Shown in pieces: positions 414 to 60,121 of a stretch of DNA of 64,000 nt (its first letter is position 1; every line of letters starts with the position of its first letter). Location of the stretch: the NCBI GenBank assembly GCA_964609855.1, contig CAZSTB010000005.1, forward strand, positions 1,467 to 65,466, given 5' to 3'. The notes beneath the pieces were generated by a model. It did no database searches and was not told the DNA's origin. It saw only the letters and a program-made list of their open reading frames with translations. Position numbers and translations under genes: made by a program. This DNA comes from an uncultured Bdellovibrionales bacterium (lineage in GTDB: Bacteria > Patescibacteriota > Minisyncoccia > Moranbacterales > GWC2-37-73).

Positions 414-1280
414 ATGATTGGACATCTAATATATACATACGATCGACTTGATGATGCTAGAATCTTGCAAGAAATTTCAAAAAATTATTTAGCCAAAGAG
501 CTAGGTGATATTTTCCTCATTCATGCTTACAACGGAGAAAATTCATTTGGATATGAAAAATATCTTGAAGACAAATTGATAAAGATAAAAAATAAAGGAC
601 ATTTTGAAGGTGCTTGCGATTTGATAAATCAAGGAATTGCTGAAGCAGGAAGGAATTTAGACATAGATTATTTAATGGTGACCGCATCCGACACTTGGTT
701 GTTGAATGCTGATTATATTAAGAAAATAATTTCAGAAATGAAAGAGATGAATAAGGTGATTGCAACTTGTGCGTGGGATGATCGCGGAATAGTTGAACCT
801 GATATAAACAATACAATGAATTTGTTTAAGATTGGTTTTGCGACTGACTTTTTTATATTAGATATGAAATGGCAAAGAGAAAATAAGCTCTTTCCGCTCA
901 AATTCAAATCTATCGCAAGAAAATTTAATGATGTGAAAGTTTTTATGACTGGACATCTCGTTTTACTGGAAGATGTTCTAGCTTATGTATATGCTAAGTT
1001 TTTTATAAAAAAGTATAATTATAATTACGGTGTTTATAAACGAGAAATGATAAAATCTTTGTATCACATGGTTGATAGAGAGCCTATACATTTTCGCAAA
1101 GAAGATGGTATATGGAAAAGAAAAATGGAATGGCCAAGTTTGGGAATTTACACTTACCATGACGAAGATGTCCAAAAGAAGAAAGCTGTATTGCAATCAA
1201 ACGAGGAAATTTCAGGTGTAAATATAGAAAAATTAAGAAATACAGACGATTTGTCATATTTTAACAAGATAAATCAATAA
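414..1280 (+). CDS. Hypothetical protein (288 aa), possibly a nucleotide-sugar transferase-like fold. No confident family.
   Basis: Long ORF with ATG start directly after the conserved leader. AT-rich codon usage typical of the window. No recognisable motif. Confidence 0.5.
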   Translation: MIGHLIYTYDRLDDARILQEISKNYLAKELGDIFLIHAYNGENSFGYEKYLEDKLIKIKNKGHFEGACDLINQGIAEAGRNLDIDYLMVTASDTWLLNADYIKKIISEMKEMNKVIATCAWDDRGIVEPDINNTMNLFKIGFATDFFILDMKWQRENKLFPLKFKSIARKFNDVKVFMTGHLVLLEDVLAYVYAKFFIKKYNYNYGVYKREMIKSLYHMVDREPIHFRKEDGIWKRKMEWPSLGIYTYHDEDVQKKKAVLQSNEEISGVNIEKLRNTDDLSYFNKINQ

Positions 1281-1397: not shown

Positions 1398-1916
1398 ATG
1401 CATAACAATAAAATTACGGAAGATGAAATTAAAACAGTCACCGAGATATTGAAAAAAATTGAGCCTGGGCTTTTGCCATTTCCAATTTTTTTAGAAGTAG
1501 CTCGACTATATGTTAGCTGTATTGTTGAAATAGTTCCTTTTTACAACGACAATGGCAATATTCAGGTTTTACTTCAGGAGCGTGAACAAGAAGATCCGAT
1601 TTGGGGAGGAATGTTACATACGGCGGGCACTGTAGTTAGGGCAAATGATGAAGATGGAACTTTTAAAAGTGCGTTTGATAGAATATTAAATAAGGAGTTG
1701 CAAGGAATTTTGATTAAAGGTGAACCAACTTTTGTTAAATCAGTTTTTCATCAAGTAGCTAGAGGTAGGGAGCTAGCCTTAATTTTTTATGTTGAATTGG
1801 CGACAAATGAAGTTTCACATCTGGGAAAATTATATGACATTGAGAAATTGCCAGCTGAGATAGTTGATACGCAAGTTCAGTTTATTCAAGATGCTGCCAA
1901 ACAATTTGTTCAATAA
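1398..1916 (+). CDS. Hypothetical protein (172 aa). Weak Nudix-like resemblance only.
   Basis: ORF starts at an ATG right after the shared leader. No sequence similarity to the ORF at 414. Confidence 0.5.
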   Translation: MHNNKITEDEIKTVTEILKKIEPGLLPFPIFLEVARLYVSCIVEIVPFYNDNGNIQVLLQEREQEDPIWGGMLHTAGTVVRANDEDGTFKSAFDRILNKELQGILIKGEPTFVKSVFHQVARGRELALIFYVELATNEVSHLGKLYDIEKLPAEIVDTQVQFIQDAAKQFVQ

Positions 1917-2324: not shown

Positions 2325-3803
2325 TTATTTCTTTAAATAATGAAAGACAGATCCAATGAAATACAATGAGCCGGTTATTGCAACCGGCTTTTTTGATTCT
2401 TTGATACTTTTGATGATCTGCGAATAATTGTTGGGAATCACTGAAAAGTTGCGAAAATTTTGAGATTCTAAAAAAGTTGCGATTTCTTTGTTGTCAACAG
2501 AGCTCCAATGATTGTCCATTCCTGAAGTTGAAAAATTAGTCAGCAAGATTTTATCAGCCAGGGGAATTATTTTCTTCAGTATATTCTTGAAATCCTTGCT
2601 TTTTTTGAAAGCGACAAGGAAAGTGAATTTTTGATTAGGATAAATTGCAGCCAAGTTAGTGGTAAAAGCCTCCATTTTTTGTGGATTGTGTGCGCCATCT
2701 ATTATTACGTTTTGTTTTTCAATCTTTCTAATTTCCATGCGACCAGGAATTGAAATGCTTTCAAGAGAAAATCTCAAAGCCTTTTCATTGATGTTGAAAT
2801 CGTCACGTTCTGATGCGATTGCTAGACAAGCCAGAGCAAGTGAGCAATTTTCAGCTTGATGTTTTCCAATGAGTCCCAATCTGACCTTTTTCAAAATTAG
2901 AGATTTTTCATTCTGAACTTGTTTCAGAATACCTCTCTGATTGCGCATTTTTATAGATCCTGAAACAAGTTCAGGATGACAATTGGGAGATTTGAAATTG
3001 AAATCAAATACTGTCTTAATCGGCGTTGAGGAGGTTGTGTAATAATTCTTTTCTTGTTTGATTGTGAAAAGCTGGGATTTTTTATCAATGCATCTTTCTT
3101 TGATAATTTTTTGTGCTCTAGCTGACTGTTGGATATTGATTGTTGTATTTTGCTTTCCTATTATTCCTGCTTTCTGCTCAGCAATTTTTGCAATTGTTTT
3201 TCCGAGAATTTCAGTGTGATCTAGTCCAATTTTTGTGATGATGCAGATCTTGTTTTTCGAGCTGACCGTGTTGGTTGCGTCCAAGGTTCCACCTAGACCA
3301 GTTTCCATGACCGCGTAGTCAATCTTTTCTTTGGCGAACATGAAAAATGCCAATCCTACATTTATTTCAAAAAATGTCGGTGCGCCATATTTGCAACTTT
3401 CCATTTTTCGTATTGCGGGAAGAATCTGATTGAAATATTTTAAAATCAATTTTTCACTCAGTAGCGCATTCGCATGTCCGCCATTTGTAGTGGCGGTTTG
3501 CGACGCGGTAGTGGAGCAAAAAACTTGCATTCTTTCTCTAATGTCAAAAATATGCGGAGAAATTGAAAGTCCAACCTTGAATCCCTGGCTTTGCAAAACA
3601 TGGCTAGTCAGGTAGGCGGTTGAACCTTTGCCGGATGTCCCTGCAATATGAATAACCTTTAGCTTGTTTTGCGGGTTGCCAAGCAGTTTCATGAAATATT
3701 TGGCTCTTTTGAGCCCAATATCTCCCATGAACAAAGCATCCCTGGTCGGGACACGGGTTTTGAGAAAATCTTCAAATTGCTGTAGACTATTTACTTTTAA
3801 CAT
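2325..3803 (-). CDS. folC: Folylpolyglutamate synthase / dihydrofolate synthase (Mur ligase family), extended (492 aa).
   Basis: HIAGTSGKGST P-loop and SPH motif typical of FolC/Mur ligases. ATG-initiated long ORF. Confidence 0.8.
   Translation of the reverse strand: MLKVNSLQQFEDFLKTRVPTRDALFMGDIGLKRAKYFMKLLGNPQNKLKVIHIAGTSGKGSTAYLTSHVLQSQGFKVGLSISPHIFDIRERMQVFCSTTASQTATTNGGHANALLSEKLILKYFNQILPAIRKMESCKYGAPTFFEINVGLAFFMFAKEKIDYAVMETGLGGTLDATNTVSSKNKICIITKIGLDHTEILGKTIAKIAEQKAGIIGKQNTTINIQQSARAQKIIKERCIDKKSQLFTIKQEKNYYTTSSTPIKTVFDFNFKSPNCHPELVSGSIKMRNQRGILKQVQNEKSLILKKVRLGLIGKHQAENCSLALACLAIASERDDFNINEKALRFSLESISIPGRMEIRKIEKQNVIIDGAHNPQKMEAFTTNLAAIYPNQKFTFLVAFKKSKDFKNILKKIIPLADKILLTNFSTSGMDNHWSSVDNKEIATFLESQNFRNFSVIPNNYSQIIKSIKESKKPVAITGSLYFIGSVFHYLKK
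2908..2982. mobile_element. MITE-like inverted-repeat element (~75 bp) inserted IN FRAME inside folC. Arms tcattctgaacttgtttcagaat / atcctgaaacaagttcaggatgacaa.
   Basis: 29-30 nt of this are identical to the tyrS-pheS intergenic element at 34561-34621 (tgtcatcctgaacttgtttcaggatctata). Encodes ...CHPELVSGSIKMRNQRGILKQVQNE... in FolC. Confidence 0.6.
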
Positions 3804-6537: not shown

Positions 6538-6719
6538 CTGGAATGCTAGCTTTTTCCCTGCTTTATTGTTAAAATAGAATAGCAATAAGATGACGTAAAA
6601 AGCAATTTTGAATTTTATAATTTTGAAATATGAATGAGTTTTGAATTATTAATTTTGAAATATTAAATCATTAAGATTTGATTTAAAATTTGGAGTTCGA
6701 AATCCATCATTAACTTTAT

Positions 6720-13420: not shown

Positions 13421-13550
13421 GCAGCGGCATTATAGCAAAGAGAATTATGATGGCTCCAATAACTGCTAGAATGATACCAATAGGACCAAGAATTACTTCC
13501 GGATTTATCAGGCTCACAATCACTGATATAGCCCAAACGAAAACTAGAAT

Positions 13551-13698
13551 AAAAGGTATTATACCCCAGGGCAAGCCCTGGACCCTTCGAGTTCCGTGGC
13601 GCTCCGTCGCTGGGGTATTAAACCTTTTGATATCATCGCTCGCTCGGAAATGAAAGCATGCTTTCATTTCGCTCGCTTCGCTTGATAATAAAAATAAT
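13551..13698 (+). repeat. Composite intergenic repeat R1 (~150 bp, + orientation). Module A aaaaggtattataCCCCAGGGCaaGCCCTGGaccc, a variable middle, module B tttcatttcgctcgcttcgcttgataataaaaat.
   Basis: Strong alignment to the reverse complement of 42916-43052. Shares its ends with 25167-25295 and 28622-28790. Confidence 0.85.
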
Positions 13699-15170: not shown

Positions 15171-15296
15171 GAAAATAATTTAGAATTCGGAATTTCGAAT
15201 AATATCTGAATTACATAACGTTTTAAAAATTCAAAATTTAATCATTAGAAATTCATTCAAAATTCAAAATTATAAATTCAAAATTTGTTAAATATT

Positions 15297-17191: not shown

Positions 17192-17283
17192 TTTTATTTT
17201 TTAATTTACAATGATCAATTTACAATTTACAATTAAATATCAATTACACAATGTAAAATGAAAATTTTGAAAATTCAATGAAA

Positions 17284-17307
17284 ATTGAAAATTGTGAATT
17301 GAAAATT
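17284..17307 (+). promoter_or_regulatory. Conserved 24-mer ATTGAAAATTGTGAATTGAAAATT directly upstream of porB. Identical copy at 48808-48831, related copy near 58807-58840.
   Basis: Exact 24-nt identity between two unlinked intergenic loci. Confidence 0.5.
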
Positions 17308-17315
17308 ATTTAAAT

Positions 17316-18224
17316 ATGAACAAAGAACTTACAAAAAAATTATCAGCCGGGCACGCGACATGCGCAGGCTGTGGAATTCCGGCAATTGTGCGCACAATCT
17401 TAGGTGCAACTGACGAGCCCGTGATCATTTCCAATGCAACTGGTTGCTTGGAGGTGACGACAACAATTTATCCCTCGACTGCCTGGAAAGTTCCTTATAT
17501 CCACAGCGTCTTTGGAAACGCCAGTGCAACAGCAGCTGGCATAGATGCTGCACAAAAAGCTTTAGAGAAAGCCGGCAAGATTTCCAAGAAAGCTAAAATT
17601 GTTGTTTTTGGAGGAGATGGCTCAACATATGATATCGGTTTGCAATCACTTTCTGGCGCACTCGAAAGAGGGCATGATTTTCTTTACGTTTGTTATGATA
17701 ATGGCGGCTACATGAACACTGGAGGACAAAGGTCTGGGGCAACCCCCTATGGCGCAACAACGGAAACGGCCCCTGCAGGATTGGAATCTTTTGGAAAAAC
17801 CCAACAGCGAAAAGACTTGATGGAGATCGTCAATGCCCATGGCATCAAATATTTAGCACAGGCTAATGTTGCGAATCTTGTTGATCTTAAACGTAAAGCT
17901 GAAAAAGCTTTTAATACTCCAGGTCCTTCATTTTTGTTGGTCTTGCAGCCGTGCACTCAAATTTGGAAATTTCCAACTTCGCAGTATGTTGCGATTGGAA
18001 AATTAGCTACGGAAACAAATTTCTGGCCATTGTATGAAATCGACAATGGAAAATATATTATAAATACTGTCCCAAAAGAAAGAAAGTCAATTGAAGAGTT
18101 TCTGAAAACCCAAGGACGCTTCAAGCATTTATTTGCTGAAAAAAATAAGGCCATAATTGAAGAAATTCAAAAAATGGTTGATAAAAATTGGGAAAAATTA
18201 TTGAGAAAAACTGAAATACAATAG
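17316..18224 (+). CDS. porB: Pyruvate:ferredoxin oxidoreductase beta subunit (TPP-binding).
   Basis: CAGCGIPAI and GGDG thiamine-diphosphate motifs. Confidence 0.85.
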   Translation: MNKELTKKLSAGHATCAGCGIPAIVRTILGATDEPVIISNATGCLEVTTTIYPSTAWKVPYIHSVFGNASATAAGIDAAQKALEKAGKISKKAKIVVFGGDGSTYDIGLQSLSGALERGHDFLYVCYDNGGYMNTGGQRSGATPYGATTETAPAGLESFGKTQQRKDLMEIVNAHGIKYLAQANVANLVDLKRKAEKAFNTPGPSFLLVLQPCTQIWKFPTSQYVAIGKLATETNFWPLYEIDNGKYIINTVPKERKSIEEFLKTQGRFKHLFAEKNKAIIEEIQKMVDKNWEKLLRKTEIQ

Positions 18225-34560: not shown

Positions 34561-34621
34561 TGTCATCCTGAACTTGTTTCAGGATCTATATTTTAGATTC
34601 CGGATTAAGTCCGGAATGACA
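34561..34621. mobile_element. MITE-like element with TGTCATCC...GGAATGACA termini and two arm hairpins (atcctgaa/ttcaggat; ttccgga/tccggaa), between tyrS and pheS.
   Basis: Termini are inverted repeats. The left arm is identical over 29 nt to the element inside folC. Related termini at 52815-52888 and 60051-60121. Confidence 0.6.
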
Positions 34622-40630: not shown

Positions 40631-40706
40631 CAGGAATTAGCTAGTAGGATTTAGCTTGTAGCAAACAGCTTTCCTGATTCCTAACTCCTAATTCCTAACT
40701 CCTGAT
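40631..40706. repeat. Inverted pair of heptamer arrays with no cargo: caggaat|tagctag|taggatt|tagcttg|tagc ... loop ... cctgattcctaactcctaattcctaactcctgatt. Predicted long imperfect hairpin.
   Basis: 7-bp periodicity (TAGNNNN / NNNNCTA). The right array is the reverse complement of AGGAGTTAGGAATTAGGAGTTAGGAATCAGG, matching the arrays at 55307 and 57070. Confidence 0.55.
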
Positions 40707-40734
40707 TTTTAATATTTAATACTACAACGTTAGT

Positions 40735-42885: not shown

Positions 42886-42915
42886 TCTATCAGATAAACT
42901 CCTAGTAATGGGAGT

Positions 42916-43052
42916 TTATTATCAAGCGAAGCGAGCGAAATGAAAAATTAATATTTTCCATTTCCGAGCAAGTGTAGATATCAAAAGGTATAATACCTCG
43001 CAGCTCTGCCCCAAAGGGTCCAGGGCTCTGCCCTGGGGTATGATACCTTTTA
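42916..43052 (-). repeat. Composite intergenic repeat R3 (- orientation), closest relative of R1.
   Basis: Reverse complement: aaaggtatcataccccagggcagagccctggaccc...ggtattataccttttgatatc...tttcatttcgctcgcttcgcttgataataaa. Confidence 0.85.
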
Positions 43053-43076
43053 TTTTTTTGAATAAATTTATGCTTA

Positions 43077-45095: not shown

Positions 45096-46265
45096 ATGAA
45101 CAAAAAATCGCCAAAAAAACGAGTGATTGTGGGGATGAGCGCGGGAGTTGATTCTTCCGTGGCGGCCGCACTTCTGAAAGAGCAGGGCTATGACGTCGTG
45201 GGAGTTTTTTTGCATTTCTGGAAAGAACCTGGCCAGGATGCTCTCAGGGAAAATAAGTGTTGCTCGGTGGAATCACAGCAAGATGCTCGTAAAGTTGCTC
45301 AGCTTTTGGATATCCCACTTTATACTGTGAATGCAGCGGCGGAATTTAAAAAAGAAGTTGTGGATTATTTTTTGGAAGAAACTAAAGCTGGAAGAACTCC
45401 AAATCCATGCGTAGTTTGCAACGAAAGAATAAAATTCAATTTTCTCTTTAAGAAAATGTTGGAGATGGGTGCTGATTTTGTGGCAACCGGTCATTATGCG
45501 GAGCTTAAAAATATTGATGGAAAATTTCATCTCTATACATCAACTGATGAGGAAAAAGACCAGACTTATTTTTTGTATTCAGTTTCGCAGAAACAACTTT
45601 CCAGAATTTTGTTTCCAGTTGGAGGATATAAAAAACCCGAAATTAGAAAAATTGCTGAAAAAATCAATTTGCCGGTTTTTGATAAGGAGGATTCCCAAGG
45701 ATTATGTTTTACGCCGGAAAAAACTCCAACCAAATTCATTAAACGAAATTTGTCTTTATCGGCAGGTGACATTGTGACGACTGAAGGCCCGCCTCGCGTC
45801 GACGAACAAGGCGTCTTGCGAGTCGAGGCGGGAAAAAAGATTGGAACACATGAAGGACTGGAGCTTTATACGCTTGGACAAAGAAAGGGAATCAATATTG
45901 GAGGCAACGGTCCCTATTTCGTTGTTGAGCGGGATTTTAAAAACAATATCCTGATCGTTACAAATGACGAACAAGATGAAAAAATTTACAAAAAAAGTAT
46001 GCTGGTTGAGGTGAAAAGTTGGATTGCGGAAAAGCCGTCATTGCCCTTGGAAGTTAATGTGAAAATCAGATACAGACACCCGTTGGTTAGGTGTATAATT
46101 AAAAGCGTTTCCACATCTGATCAGAAAAATATAAGGATAGCTAGAGATGCCGAACTGTATGAGGTGGAATTTTTAGAAAAACAAAAGGCCGTCACACCGG
46201 GACAATCAGCAGTTTTTTATGCGGATGATAATGAAGTTTTAGGGGGAGGAACGATTCTTGGATAA
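45096..46265 (+). CDS. mnmA: tRNA-specific 2-thiouridylase.
   Basis: PP-loop VIVGMSAGVDSSV. Conserved catalytic Cys region. Confidence 0.9.
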   Translation: MNKKSPKKRVIVGMSAGVDSSVAAALLKEQGYDVVGVFLHFWKEPGQDALRENKCCSVESQQDARKVAQLLDIPLYTVNAAAEFKKEVVDYFLEETKAGRTPNPCVVCNERIKFNFLFKKMLEMGADFVATGHYAELKNIDGKFHLYTSTDEEKDQTYFLYSVSQKQLSRILFPVGGYKKPEIRKIAEKINLPVFDKEDSQGLCFTPEKTPTKFIKRNLSLSAGDIVTTEGPPRVDEQGVLRVEAGKKIGTHEGLELYTLGQRKGINIGGNGPYFVVERDFKNNILIVTNDEQDEKIYKKSMLVEVKSWIAEKPSLPLEVNVKIRYRHPLVRCIIKSVSTSDQKNIRIARDAELYEVEFLEKQKAVTPGQSAVFYADDNEVLGGGTILG

Positions 46266-48717: not shown

Positions 48718-48807
48718 AAGGCTCAAAATAACCAATTTTCAATAATCAATTCTCAATTCACAATGAATTTTCAATTTTCAATTTTTTAATTGCAAATTCT
48801 GGTTTTA

Positions 48808-48831
48808 TTGAAAATTGTGAATTGAAAATTG
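48808..48831 (+). promoter_or_regulatory. Second copy of the conserved 24-mer ATTGAAAATTGTGAATTGAAAATT, about 25 bp upstream of the rplU promoter.
   Basis: Identical to 17284-17307. Confidence 0.5.
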
Positions 48832-48857
48832 GAAATTCTGGCAAAATGCCTTTGTAC

Positions 48858-52814: not shown

Positions 52815-52888
52815 TTTGTCATCCTCAGCTTGACTGGGGATCCAGAGCCCTGCCTAGCCCTGGATTCTCGTTTACACGGGAATGACAT
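52815..52888. mobile_element. MITE-like element TTGTCATCC...CGGGAATGACA (about 74 bp) in the long non-coding region upstream of dnaB.
   Basis: Terminal inverted repeats match those at 34561-34621 and 60051-60121. Confidence 0.5.
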
Positions 52889-53870: not shown

Positions 53871-55301
53871 TTAGGAAGCTGGCTTTATCTTTGGTCCTTC
53901 GCTTGTATCTTCGACCACGAAGCCATGTTTTTCAATAAGTGCTCTGAGTTCGTCTGATTTTTTGAAATCTTTTTGATCTCTGGCAGCTTCGCGTTTTTGC
54001 ATGAGTTCTTTCACTTCTGTAGGAATTTCTGCTTGACCCTGTAGGATGAGTCCAAAGACGCTATTCATTCTGTTCCAGAGCGACAAAATTTTCTTGGCAT
54101 CCTCGGAGCTGATGTCCTCATTGGTTTGGCGAATATTGAATTCGGTTATAAGTTCATAGAGTTGACTTAATGCAAGCGGAGTGTTGAGGTCATCATCTAA
54201 GGCGCTCTCAAATTTTTCCTTGTGAGATGTGATTTCAAATTCTTTGGCGCTTGGTTTTTCTGATTTGGCTAAAATTTCTAAATTCAAAATGAAATCATTA
54301 ATTTTTTGCAAGTTCTTATGAGCTTGCATTATGGCATCCCAAGAAAAATCCATTTGAGAACGGTAATGCGATGAAAGGAATAGGACCCTCAGATCCATCG
54401 GTGAAAAACCTTTCTCAATGATGTCTTCAAGTTTGTATAAATTACCCTTGGATTTGCTCATTTTTTCTCCATTCATCAAGAGATGGCGACCATGAATCCA
54501 GAATCGGACATATTTTTTTCCGGTGAAGCATTCAGTTTGTGCAATTTCTGCTTCATGATGCGGGAAGATGTTATCTTCGCCACCAGTGTGAATATCAATG
54601 GTTGAACCGAGGTATTCCGTGCTCATGGCGCTGCATTCAATATGCCAGCCTGGATAACCGATTGACCATGGAGAATGCCATTTTAAAAGATGGGCTTCAG
54701 GCGCTTTGAGCCAAAGTGCGAAATCCCAGGGATTTCTTTTGTCTGGATGTTCTTCGAGGCGAGCTCCTACTTTTAAATTTTCCAGCGTATTGCCAGAAAG
54801 TTTTCCGTATTCTTCAAATTTGGTCACATCAAAAAATACATTGCCATTCACTTCGTAAGCGTAGCCTTTTTCAATCAGTCCTTCGATTATTTTAATCATT
54901 TGCGGAACGTGCTTGGTGGCGCGTGGGAAATATTGAGCAGGCAAAATATTCAATTGTTTTTCAACATCCTTAAAATATTCCTCATAAAATCTGGCTATTT
55001 CTTCAGGGGTCTTTTTTTCAGCTAAAGCAGCCTTAAGCATCTTATCTTCGCCAGCATCACCTTGGGCAATATCATCAGCGGTAAGATGTCCGACATCGGT
55101 AATGTTTTTGATTTGTCGAACTTCATAGCCAATGTATTCCAAATAGCGTCTTACGATATCAGAAAGTAGGTAGGCACGAATATTACCAATGTGCACAAAG
55201 CCGTAAACTGTGGGACCGCAAGTATACATCCCAACCTTACCGGGATTAAGCGACTCAAATTCTTCCTTTTGTTTGGAGTAGGTATTGTAAATCTTTAACA
55301 T
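53871..55301 (-). CDS. cysS: Cysteine--tRNA ligase.
   Basis: Class I motifs: HIGN (HIGH variant), KMSKS, and zinc-binding Cys residues. Confidence 0.9.
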   Translation of the reverse strand: MLKIYNTYSKQKEEFESLNPGKVGMYTCGPTVYGFVHIGNIRAYLLSDIVRRYLEYIGYEVRQIKNITDVGHLTADDIAQGDAGEDKMLKAALAEKKTPEEIARFYEEYFKDVEKQLNILPAQYFPRATKHVPQMIKIIEGLIEKGYAYEVNGNVFFDVTKFEEYGKLSGNTLENLKVGARLEEHPDKRNPWDFALWLKAPEAHLLKWHSPWSIGYPGWHIECSAMSTEYLGSTIDIHTGGEDNIFPHHEAEIAQTECFTGKKYVRFWIHGRHLLMNGEKMSKSKGNLYKLEDIIEKGFSPMDLRVLFLSSHYRSQMDFSWDAIMQAHKNLQKINDFILNLEILAKSEKPSAKEFEITSHKEKFESALDDDLNTPLALSQLYELITEFNIRQTNEDISSEDAKKILSLWNRMNSVFGLILQGQAEIPTEVKELMQKREAARDQKDFKKSDELRALIEKHGFVVEDTSEGPKIKPAS

Positions 55302-55306
55302 AGGCG

Positions 55307-55340
55307 TTAGGAATTAGGAGTTAGGTTGTAGGGATGAGGA
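55307..55340 (+). repeat. Heptamer array TTAGGAA|TTAGGAG|TTAGGTT|GTAGGGA|TGAGGAT, left flank of the intact four-helix-bundle gene. Overlaps its last codons.
   Basis: Strict 7-bp periodicity. Inverted relative to 55727-55759. Confidence 0.7.
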
Positions 55341-56810: not shown

Positions 56811-57074
56811 ATGAAAGTGATGAAATTAGCTAAAAAAATGTTCTTATTTTTGATTAAAGTCTATCAAAAAGTTTTTTCTCTTGATCATGGGATACCTTCA
56901 TTTTTTTGGGGTGGTAGGATTTGTAGATTTCATCCATCCTGCAGTCATTATATGTATCAGGCAGTTGAAAGATTTGGAATTATTAAGGGTTTCTGGCTTG
57001 GATTGAAGAGATTTTTCAGGTGCCATCCCTGGAACGATGGGGGATATGATCCGGTGCCGAAGAGCAGGAGTTAG
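56811..57074 (+). CDS. yidD: Membrane protein insertion efficiency factor YidD.
   Basis: [18 protein letters not shown]...[14 protein letters not shown] is a near-complete YidD signature. Confidence 0.85.
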
Positions 57075-57180
57075 GTCGTAGGAAGTAGGTGGTAGGATGA
57101 AACTGGAATTATGAATTAGGCTGTGGGAATGATGTGGTAGGATTTAGGAATTAGGTGGTGGGTTGTGGTGATTAAAATTG
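57070..57180 (+). repeat. Two direct heptamer arrays (GCAGGAG|TTAGGTC|GTAGGAA|GTAGGTG|GTAGGAT ... TAGGATT|TAGGAAT|TAGGTGG|TGGGTTG|TGGTGAT).
   Basis: 7-bp periodic TAGG repeats in the same orientation. No cargo ORF between them. Confidence 0.55.
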
Positions 57181-57964: not shown

Positions 57965-58708
57965 ATGAACGAAAGACAAGAAAAAATTTTAGCAGCTGTC
58001 GTTGAAGAATATACTCAAACGGCTGTTCCTGTTGGGAGTCAGATTCTGGCTGGTAAATATGGCTTTCAGGTAAGCTCGGCAACCATCAGAAATGACATGA
58101 TGACTCTTGAGGAGGAGGGATATTTATATCAGCCACATATTAGTGCTGGTAGAATTCCAACTGATAATGGTTACAGATATTTTGTGGAAGAGGTCATGAA
58201 AGATAAGGTGCTTTCAAAAGAGGAACAGCAGATAATGCAAAAAGAATTTTTAAAATTAAAGGCTCAAAATAAACGACTCACGAGAACAACAGCGAAACTA
58301 CTTTCCCATGTTAGCGGAAATTTTGCTATCAGTAGTTTGCAGGAAAACGATGAATTTGCGGAATTTGGAATGCGCGAACTTATGGAGGCTCCGGAATTCC
58401 AAGAAATGGATGAAATGTGCAGGGTAGTTGAAATGCTGGATTATATCGATGAGAAATTTGACCAGCTGACAAAGGGTATTAAGGAGGGAGAAACGAGGAT
58501 ATTCATTGGGAAAGAAAATCCTATCCATCCAACTGCCAATTGTTCTATGATTGTTTCCCCCTATAGGTTGAAAAACGGCGAGAAAGGAATCCTGGCATTA
58601 ATCGGACCAAAAAGAATGAAGTATGCTCAGAACAAGTCTATGATTGATTATGTAAAAAAGCTCCTGGGAGCATCAATGGTGATAATAGTAATGATAAATA
58701 TCGTTTAA
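57965..58708 (+). CDS. hrcA: Heat-inducible transcription repressor HrcA (short form).
   Basis: N-terminal winged HTH (ILAAVVEEYTQTAVPVGSQILA). CIRCE site upstream. grpE-dnaK downstream. Confidence 0.8.
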   Translation: MNERQEKILAAVVEEYTQTAVPVGSQILAGKYGFQVSSATIRNDMMTLEEEGYLYQPHISAGRIPTDNGYRYFVEEVMKDKVLSKEEQQIMQKEFLKLKAQNKRLTRTTAKLLSHVSGNFAISSLQENDEFAEFGMRELMEAPEFQEMDEMCRVVEMLDYIDEKFDQLTKGIKEGETRIFIGKENPIHPTANCSMIVSPYRLKNGEKGILALIGPKRMKYAQNKSMIDYVKKLLGASMVIIVMINIV

Positions 58709-58845
58709 ATAATTTTCAATGCTCAATTCTCAATTTTCATTGAATTTTCAAATCATAATTATTGATAATGCATCTGTTTAAGAACTTTTTCATTGTAAAT
58801 TGATTGTGAATTGAAAACTGTAAATTGAAAATTGATATTAAATTT

Positions 58846-60050: not shown

Positions 60051-60121
60051 TTGTCATTCCCATGAAAATGGGAATCCAGGTTCGAGAGAATCCACGGATT
60101 ATAAATTCATGGGAATGACAA
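60051..60121. mobile_element. MITE-like element TTGTCATTCC...GGGAATGACAA upstream of dnaK.
   Basis: 10-bp terminal inverted repeats. Internal hairpin attcccatgaaaatgggaat. Confidence 0.55.

Follow-up and report, generated by a model that had tools for sequence, protein, structure and literature searches.

Four palindromic elements in a Moranbacteria genome, one in frame within folC, are probable inverted REP dimers of the CGTC/TGTC-tagged class

Locus and anatomy of the palindromic elements

The window, the whole 64-kb stretch of DNA analysed here, carries trmD divergent from a folC-family gene, then ftsW, murG and murC, a synteny common to the window and its relatives. By its FolC homologs, the window belongs to Candidatus Moranbacteria, within the Candidate Phyla Radiation/Patescibacteria. 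Four short palindromic elements, ranging in length from 61 to 76 nt, lie within folC and in the tyrS–pheS, dnaB–ORF 53134 and grpE–dnaK spacers (Table 1), and all four loci had been recorded in the initial annotation, essentially at these positions. Two of the copies sit between co-directional genes. The pattern TGTCATYC-N30-60-GRATGACA has three matches in the window and none in 100 dinucleotide shuffles, and the folC copy is also recovered once one mismatch per terminus is allowed.

Table 1 Coordinates of folC and of the four probable REP dimers, with their modules and flanking repeats
Feature	Position in window	Strand	Remarks
folC-family gene, Mur-ligase-type folylpolyglutamate/dihydrofolate synthase homolog, 492 aa	2325..3803	-	Pfam Mur_ligase_M + Mur_ligase_C
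REP dimer in folC	2906..2981	-	within ORF 2325..3803; folds as single long hairpin
folC copy, left module TGTCATCCTGAACTTGTTTCAGGATC	2981 down to 2956	-	spacer 2932-2955
folC copy, right module	2906-2931	-	degenerate; terminus TTTCAT, not TGTCAT
Imperfect 11-12 nt direct repeat, left copy AAATCTCCCAAT (coding KSPN)	2982..2993	-	flanks folC element
Imperfect direct repeat, right copy AAATCTCTAAT (coding KSLI)	2896-2906	-	flanks folC element
REP heterodimer, tyrS-pheS spacer	34561..34621	+	16 nt past tyrS stop, 10 nt ahead of pheS start
tyrS-pheS copy, modules	34561-34586; 34596-34621	+	first identical to folC module; second with stem ATTCCGGA
REP heterodimer, 720-nt spacer	52817..52887	+	between divergent dnaB and ORF 53134
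52817 copy, modules	52817-52842; 52863-52887	+	first with stem ATCCTCAG/CTGGGGAT
REP dimer, grpE-dnaK spacer	60052..60120	+	104 nt upstream of dnaK

Each element is made up of two inverted modules of approximately 26 nt, with their tags oriented outward and their tails inward. A module consists of a TGTC tag, a 5′ stem arm of the form AT-YC-NNNN, a loop of 4–5 nt, a complementary arm NNNN-GR-AT and a C plus the tail. The ends had previously been described as terminal inverted repeats of about 10 bp; they are indeed inverted, but each is really a 4-nt tag with a hairpin module of about 26 nt. The window stems (ATCCTGAA, ATTCCGGA, ATCCTCAG and ATTCCCAT) differ among the copies, and each has its complementary 3′ arm. 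The tag is TGTC in seven of the eight modules and TTTC in the remaining one, at the degenerate terminus of the folC copy (TTTCATTC). Loops are CTTGT, CTTAA and CTTGA (5 nt) or GAAA (4 nt); of the tails, three are CCA and three CTA. No solitary module is present in the 64-kb window.

All four copies are inverted dimers, two of them homodimer-like and two heterodimers. The homodimer-like copies, in folC and at 60052, form one long hairpin each, with a z-score of −7 to −8 for the latter, whose left module has a 4-nt loop (ATTCCCAT GAAA ATGGGAAT) and the tail CCAG and whose right module is degenerate. In the heterodimers at 34561 and 52817, the tags form a short closing stem around two module hairpins and a spacer hairpin. 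In the tyrS–pheS copy the spacer hairpin is small and formed by 9 nt, and the overall fold is a closing stem with three hairpins; in the 52817 copy it is a CCAG..CTGG hairpin, both modules have a CCAG tail, and with G:U pairs allowed both hairpins are perfect on the + strand only. The internal arm hairpins noted in the initial annotation are real: z-scores for the four copies span −2.1 to −8.2, with −2.3 to −8.2 for RNA and −2.1 to −7.1 for DNA folding. The 29–30-nt identity reported between the folC and tyrS–pheS copies was likewise reproduced, as an exact 30-mer (2952–2981 and 34561–34590).

In-frame insertion at a β-hairpin turn of FolC

The folC element encodes residues 275–299 of FolC (window 2907–2981; peptide CHPELVSGSIKMRNQRGILKQVQNE) in frame and free of stops. 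The best solved relative is the Thermotoga maritima FolC (1o5z, E=8.8e-49), with which the alignment is broken between query residues 255 and 309, the segment being absent from the T. maritima protein. The insertion point is a two-residue β-hairpin turn just ahead of the GxHQxxN motif. The two-residue turn, between FDFxF and LKNIxLGLIGxHQ, is retained in 12 of 40 Moranbacteria FolC orthologs and extra residues occur in the other 28; among more distant orthologs from the Candidate Phyla Radiation (CPR), 52 of 53 have a tight turn with no insert. The nearest ortholog, P0004 (74% identity), has an empty site (DNA TTTAATTTTTGTTTTTTTAATTTAAATTTAAAAAAT). A protein identical to the window FolC is encoded on one NCBI contig and forms a cluster of one member, the nearest FolC proteins being approximately 68–74% identical.

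The alignments with orthologs show that the folC copy has truly been inserted in frame, with conserved blocks on either side, as the initial annotation had proposed; neither of the two observations named there as contrary to it holds, the segment not being conserved in orthologs and the 30-nt identity being reproduced. The addition of about 25 codons holds for the element itself, which leaves the frame intact, whereas the net gain relative to empty orthologs is approximately 29 residues (31 in place of the 2-residue turn). Four of the extra residues are accounted for by the direct repeat around the element (KSPN and KSLI).

In the AlphaFold model of FolC (mean pLDDT 81.5), residues 275–298 have pLDDT values below 50 and are flanked by strands 264–271 and 301–309, placing the insert at the tip of a β-hairpin, where it is predicted to be surface-exposed. 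Direct reading of the sequence indicates a sole stop-free combination of frames for the folC dimer, with CHPELVSGS or VILNLFQD on the left and ILKQVQ.. on the right, and this is the combination observed.

The insertion had been described as a rare case of a miniature element tolerated inside an essential enzyme. The rarity is overstated, as in-frame REP/RPE insertions are documented in housekeeping genes of Rickettsia and other bacteria, and two more in-frame palindromes occur within the window itself; for a CPR bacterium, the essentiality of the enzyme is presumptive. These are of other sequence types: one corresponds to FolC residues 95–111, and the other to MnmA residues 232–246, an exact 15-residue gap in comparison with Escherichia coli MnmA. 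They suggest that palindromes recur within the coding sequence of this Moranbacteria genome.

The same FolC turn in relatives

The left module of the FolC insert is identical to that of the window at 26 of 26 nt in two relatives (L001 and L002), whose FolC proteins are only approximately 66% identical to it, and whose right modules and junction codons are unlike those of the window. In a further relative, L004, the folC insert (TGTCATTCCCGCGAAGGCGGGAATCCAG...CTGGATCCCCAGTCAAGCTGGGGATGACA) is read in another frame, as VIPAKAGIQ...WIPSQAGDDN, and its module is also present between genes, in a copy 200 nt downstream of folC. The same turn holds a single hairpin bearing both tags in L127, a lone inverted module in L128, a palindrome with no tag in L126 and, in L125, an insert that has ceased to be palindromic; in one insert type, ..LFQNQTTASKW.., a palindrome is no longer visible in the DNA. 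A neighbour-joining tree of FolC, computed with the insert columns removed and carrying no support values, divides the three CHPELVSGS carriers among three groups, and in every one of these there are sister proteins with an empty site.

From these sequences, the FolC turn in Moranbacteria appears to have been repeatedly hit, or re-modelled. Either insertion occurred independently several times, which is favoured by the junctions differing among orthologs, or a single old insertion was lost time and again and renewed by conversion from copies elsewhere in the genome. The broader proposal, that palindromic repeats recurrently colonise Moranbacteria housekeeping proteins in frame as in Rickettsia (two sites in FolC and one in MnmA here), with the FolC turn as a hot spot entered independently by different CGTC-type modules in several lineages, is tentative and is considered to be on the doubtful side.

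Spread across phyla and covariation of the stems

An exact 25-mer of the module, GTCATYCTGAACTTGTTTCAGRATC, was found in at least 120 genome stretches, from isolates as well as metagenome-assembled genomes, in a scan of one genome per species. Among the matches listed, the hosts comprise Patescibacteria, Bacteroidota, Alphaproteobacteria, Spirochaetota, Elusimicrobia, Firmicutes, Campylobacterota, Melainabacteria, Ignavibacteria and others. At least 10 phyla have one and the same 25-nt stem-loop variant. Most of the stretches listed contain dimers, with partners such as GATGCTGAAACAAGTTCAGCATGAC.

In 180 modules collected from all loci, the first base of the tag is T in 95 and C in 85, stems are perfectly paired in 164, and loops measure 5 nt in 170, 4 nt in 8 and 6 nt in 2. 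The first C of the tail is constant and the remainder varies (CTC 53, CCA 42, CTA 35 and CTT 22), with CCA present in only about a quarter of the modules, a point against the family assignment made below.

The stems covary. For 80 distinct sequences, picked by the flanks YGTCAT-N17-ATC only, stem pairing is found in 87% of cells, compared with 70.6% in shuffles (reached in 0 of 500) and 18–47% in slid controls, and double-sided stem changes number 109, compared with 37.8 in shuffles.

Family assignment

CGTC-tagged REPs were defined by Di Nocera, De Gregorio and Rocco (2013, BMC Genomics 14:522, PMC3733652). In that survey, the tag is given as CGTC, in many repeats TGTC, with CCTC allowed; the stem is 8–9 bp long, nearly always with A-T at positions 1–2; the loop has 4 nt in family 1 and 5 nt in families 2–4; and the tail is short and unpaired, 3 nt, with the consensus CCA. 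The repeats are described there as occurring mainly in inverted homo- or heterodimers with structured spacers, intragenic dimers are reported to encode 20–30 residues, and, according to the survey, CGTC repeats have no associated or dedicated transposase. [quoted passage not shown]

Most window modules, by their sequence, fit CGTC-2 (8-bp stem and 5-nt loop), and the 4-nt-loop module of the 60052 copy looks like CGTC-1. The peptide RHSELVSGS of Sulfurovum SUN_0512 is entered as a CGTC-2 REP in Additional file 3 of the survey (PMC3733652); it is the translation of CGTCATTCTGAACTTGTTTCAGGATC, the same module with a C tag, a match made by back-translation and not by nucleotide comparison. The exact 25-mer is also present in a Sulfurovaceae genome (L016).

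Copying mechanism and rival explanations

A conserved tag beside a variable, always paired hairpin is the type of substrate used by HUH tyrosine (Y1) transposases. The Neisseria REPIN 21-mer ATTCCCGCGCAGGCGGGAATC, to which the module of the L004 FolC insert is identical at 20 of 21 positions, has been assigned to a Group 2 RAYT (preprint, bioRxiv 10.1101/2021.07.10.451892). The tag with its paired hairpin and this Neisseria REPIN–RAYT link together favour a Y1-type enzyme that copies the modules as single-stranded hairpins. It is probable, in our judgement, that the four loci, one of which resides in folC, are inverted dimers of selfish REP modules of the CGTC/TGTC superfamily, copied in trans by Y1-type activity. 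The modules would be non-autonomous selfish repeats that spread as single-stranded hairpins and generate no target duplication, and the agent acting in trans would be a tyrosine HUH transposase (Y1, RAYT-type), as proposed for the closely similar Neisseria dRS3 REPINs. One dimer would have landed in folC at the two-residue turn, and would have survived there because it offered the sole open frame combination (CHPELVSGS...ILKQVQNE) and formed a protruding, disordered surface loop. The transposase, the single-strand mechanism and the neutrality of the FolC loop are parts of this scheme that we infer; the data themselves show the anatomy of the elements, their place in the family, the covarying stems, the insertion relative to orthologs, the lack of target duplications and the occurrence in many phyla.

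The searches for an enzyme count against a Y1 agent, as does the lack of a dedicated transposase for CGTC repeats in the 2013 survey. A RAYT/TIRYT profile, derived from the aligned sequences of Additional file 5 (PMC3733652), detected no Y1/RAYT gene in the 64-kb window and a single Y1 gene in approximately 1 Mb of element-bearing loci (L021; PF01797 E=1.6e-6), and the latter is flanked by a different, unrelated hairpin. All-against-all clustering of open reading frames from 120 element-bearing loci gave no recurrent neighbour gene. Small GIY-YIG genes adjoin modules in L099 (on both sides) and L065, and GIY-YIG was rejected as the mobilising gene, two of five such genes being adjacent, approximately the chance level. 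Among genes enclosed by outward-tagged modules 250–2500 nt apart none was recurrent, the sole case being the GIY-YIG gene in L099.

The elements had initially been labelled MITE-like. A classic MITE arises by deletion from an insertion sequence of the DDE-transposase type, is recognised at its terminal inverted repeats and duplicates the target site when it inserts. Such an origin would explain the inverted ends and the presence of AAATCTCCCAAT and AAATCTCTAAT on either side of the folC copy, the 76 nt of the element and 11 nt of repeat making up the net 87-nt gain over the empty turn. The search for duplications that the initial annotation had suggested, however, found none beyond chance in 57 dimers from many genomes (offsets 0–2), for which the observed distribution equals that of a shuffled-partner control; the three remaining copies of the window likewise have none, nor do those of L001, L002 and L004. 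No repeat comparable to that flanking folC was found at those three copies or in the 57 dimers, and it is therefore treated as an isolated feature, which could be a local duplication made upon insertion, or chance. It is also not predicted by the Y1 mechanism. The unit is a hairpin module and not a pair of terminal repeats, as indicated by the lone module in L128 and the both-tag single hairpin in L127, and no parent insertion sequence occurs among the genes flanked by modules in the element-bearing loci. As the lack of duplications renders a DDE-type mechanism unlikely, descent from a classic MITE is given very little credence: what stands of the earlier label is a repeated palindromic family, its ends being tag-plus-hairpin REP modules.

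Selection by the host for a structural element, either as an RNA hairpin in the stabilisation or processing of transcripts or as a DNA site for a conserved host or phage protein, is unlikely as the primary explanation. Neisseria dRS3 repeats, for example, are integration sites. In its favour, the stems covary, one exact stem-loop variant is kept across phyla, two copies lie between co-directional genes, and the hairpins at 52817 are both perfect on one strand only when G:U pairs are allowed; intergenic copies may act as RNA hairpins. Against this, coding-region copies occur in different frames, their presence varies among orthologs, and the location relative to genes is not fixed. Strand-specific G:T wobble, considered as a sign of RNA-level or single-strand selection, showed no bias relative to the tag (7 versus 5). 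No Rfam family was detected, the only match at the gathering threshold and at E<=1 being a chance miRNA-hairpin match on the folC palindrome, and a hammerhead or other small ribozyme was rejected for the three-way-junction fold, its conserved core motifs being absent on inspection. A structural role selected by the host and mobility can coexist. Least credible is an old, lineage-specific FolC loop under protein-level selection, with a coincidental or secondary similarity to the intergenic copy. The extra residues at the turn in 28 of the 40 Moranbacteria FolCs and the non-palindromic insert type ..LFQNQTTASKW.. would fit such a loop, but the peptide is unconserved, the same DNA module being read in different frames (CHPELVSGS and VIPAKAGIQ); the codons at the junctions are not the same; proteins with and without an insert are intermingled in the tree; the module DNA is identical at 26 of 26 positions between FolCs with a protein identity of only about 66%; and no insert is present in 52 of the 53 more distant orthologs. 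The ortholog alignments and ortholog DNA already contradict it.

Implications

The assignment to inverted REP dimers extends the CGTC-tagged class, represented by Neisseria dRS3 and Rickettsia RPE-4/6, to the CPR, and makes folC a further housekeeping gene known to tolerate inserts of this type. The repeats explain odd low-complexity segments in CPR proteins (CHPELVSGS, VIPAKAGIQ, LDSRLRGNDK and ILKQVQND) and spurious small open reading frames, and REP inserts mark insertion-tolerant protein loops. Both the recurrent hits on one FolC loop in one clade and the exact 25-mer shared across phyla, in a class with no agreed transposase, could help to find the copying machinery. If the reading of a colonised hot spot were true, filled and empty FolC alleles would reveal which targets are preferred when CGTC REPs are copied, and the 25-nt variant in at least 10 phyla would suggest an enzyme that spreads horizontally or is universally conserved, not lineage-bound RAYTs.

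Comparison with known systems

Bacterial MITEs such as Correia elements are likewise short, non-coding and multi-copy, with inverted ends, and are occasionally found in genes, but the elements described here have neither target-site duplications nor a parent insertion sequence among the loci searched, and their repeat unit is a tagged hairpin. They share with REPIN–RAYT systems (PMC3116915; bioRxiv 10.1101/2021.07.10.451892) the inverted REP doublets, able to fold as one long hairpin in the folC and 60052 copies, and the lack of target duplication. They differ in that no cognate RAYT was found in the 64-kb window or in approximately 1 Mb of element-bearing loci, and in that half of the window dimers are heterodimers, which cannot fold into the one long hairpin typical of a canonical REPIN, a point against a REPIN reading. 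The module also occurs in many phyla, whereas REPIN–RAYT systems are described as mostly vertically inherited; simple vertical REPIN–RAYT inheritance does not account for a stem-loop variant that is identical in different phyla.

The closest likeness in structure is to the CGTC-2 and CGTC-1 REPs (PMC3733652): in the tag, the 8-bp A-T-first stem, the 4–5-nt loop and the short tail; in the inverted homo- and heterodimers with short structured spacers; and in the intragenic dimers of 20–30 residues and the lack of a linked transposase. Spacers in the window measure 9–24 nt and so reach or fall short of the lower limit of the 20–100 reported there, and the tail is CTA as often as CCA, compared with the published CCA consensus. 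The host, a member of the CPR/Patescibacteria (Moranbacteria), is absent from the hosts named in the parts of the survey used here, as is folC from its list of interrupted genes, and no report of REPs or MITEs in CPR/Patescibacteria was found in the literature searched.

Rickettsia RPEs resemble the coding copies in being in-frame palindromes within housekeeping proteins, to which they add short surface segments, and in affecting several genes of a small, reduced genome; they belong to an unrelated phylum, and elements of the RPE-1 type are longer. RPE-decorated Rickettsia proteins are reported as expressed (PMC3733652), whereas translation of the FolC insert is predicted. The folC copy conforms to the Rickettsia pattern, being an in-frame insertion that is absent from orthologs and probably at the surface of a conserved protein. 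The elements are thus of a known kind, CGTC-class REPs with in-frame palindromic insertions as in Rickettsia, and what is new is the CPR host group, folC as a target and the repeated use of one β-hairpin turn within a clade.

In-frame palindromic insertions in FolC and MnmA

FolC, the product of the ORF at 2325..3803, carries a second in-frame insertion in addition to its dimer of TGTC modules (tagged hairpins of the REP class). The inserted residues, F95–A111, are encoded by a palindrome, GCGTCGCAAACCGCCA..TGGCGGACATGCGAATGCGC, that is GC-richer than the module dimer and of a different type, and residues 98–113 have low AlphaFold confidence. Only 5 of the 40 orthologues contain the insertion (P0001, the window's own FolC, together with P0002, P0006, P0014 and P0029), and these carriers are scattered in the FolC tree, forming no common group. 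The copy in the Moranbacteria folC relative L001 has an additional hairpin nested within it; no further copies of the palindrome were found elsewhere in the window.

The GC-rich palindrome in MnmA raises the number of in-frame palindromic insertions in housekeeping genes to three, two of which are in FolC. It encodes residues 232–246 (PPRVDEQGVLRVEAG), which correspond to an exact 15-residue gap in E. coli MnmA (2der), located at a β-hairpin turn. Neither the window nor the fetched loci yielded a second copy.

Repeats and hairpin-associated genes in the window and in fetched loci
Feature	Position	Strand or orientation	Details
Second FolC insertion	3471–3521; hairpin 3465–3507	(-)	F95–A111, FCSTTASQTATTNGGHA
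MnmA palindrome, GC-rich (ORF 45096–46265)	45788–45832	(+)	CCCGCCTCG...CGAGGCGGG; outer stem 9 bp
Direct repeat, 87 nt	330–416; 1314–1400		Copies 86% identical
Structured intergenic repeat, ~145 nt	13546–13692 (+); 42915–43054 (-)	Opposite	Two copies
A+T-rich degenerate intergenic repeats	6600–6667; 15223–15287; 17198–17320; 48724–48840; 58704–58834	Both	AATTGAAAATTG-like units
G/T-rich degenerate spacer repeats	40631–40712; 55301–55340; 57021–57172		TAGGAGTTAGG-like
Y1 transposase gene (IS200-like, PF01797)	L021 3671–4411		Patescibacteria MAG JAHJQJ010000031.1
GIY-YIG nuclease gene between TGTC modules	L099 1524–1897		101-aa product; uncultured Gammaproteobacteria MAG

Other repeats of the window

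Each copy of the 87-nt repeat lies directly upstream of one of two adjacent ORFs, 414..1280 and 1398..1916, neither of which has a Pfam match. The repeat takes in the ribosome-binding region as well as an 11-bp hairpin (TTTTTCTGCTT..AAGCAGAAAAA), and may serve as a common leader or regulatory element of both ORFs.

The ~145 nt repeat, with blocks 86–100% identical between copies and the hairpins CCAGGGCAAGCCCTGG and GAAATGAAAGCATGCTTTCATTTC, has no match in Rfam and no relation to TGTC modules. Among the A+T-rich repeats, 17266–17314 and 58704–58752 are complementary, at up to 94% over 49 nt. The last G/T-rich block follows a small, putatively YidD-like ORF (translation read by eye), in a 1.3-kb stretch whose only ORFs are small and Cys-rich.

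Hairpin modules in other genomes

An exact 25-nt stem-loop variant of the REP module is common to genomes of at least 10 phyla (genome_contigs stretches L005–L124), its carriers including cultured isolates of Sphingomonas, Pedobacter, Roseivirga, Salegentibacter and Treponema bryantii. In L099, the GIY-YIG gene is framed by a pair of TGTC modules with outward tags, separated by 374 nt, and takes a place like that of a REP-dimer spacer; in L065, another such stretch, a GIY-YIG gene lies 90 nt from a module. By a rough estimate, these adjacencies are not significant.

The Y1 gene of L021 has the hairpin GTGCACCTCCAAGGTGCAC on either side, both in direct orientation. This is a REPtron-like layout in a CPR genome, with a REP type that differs from the TGTC modules.
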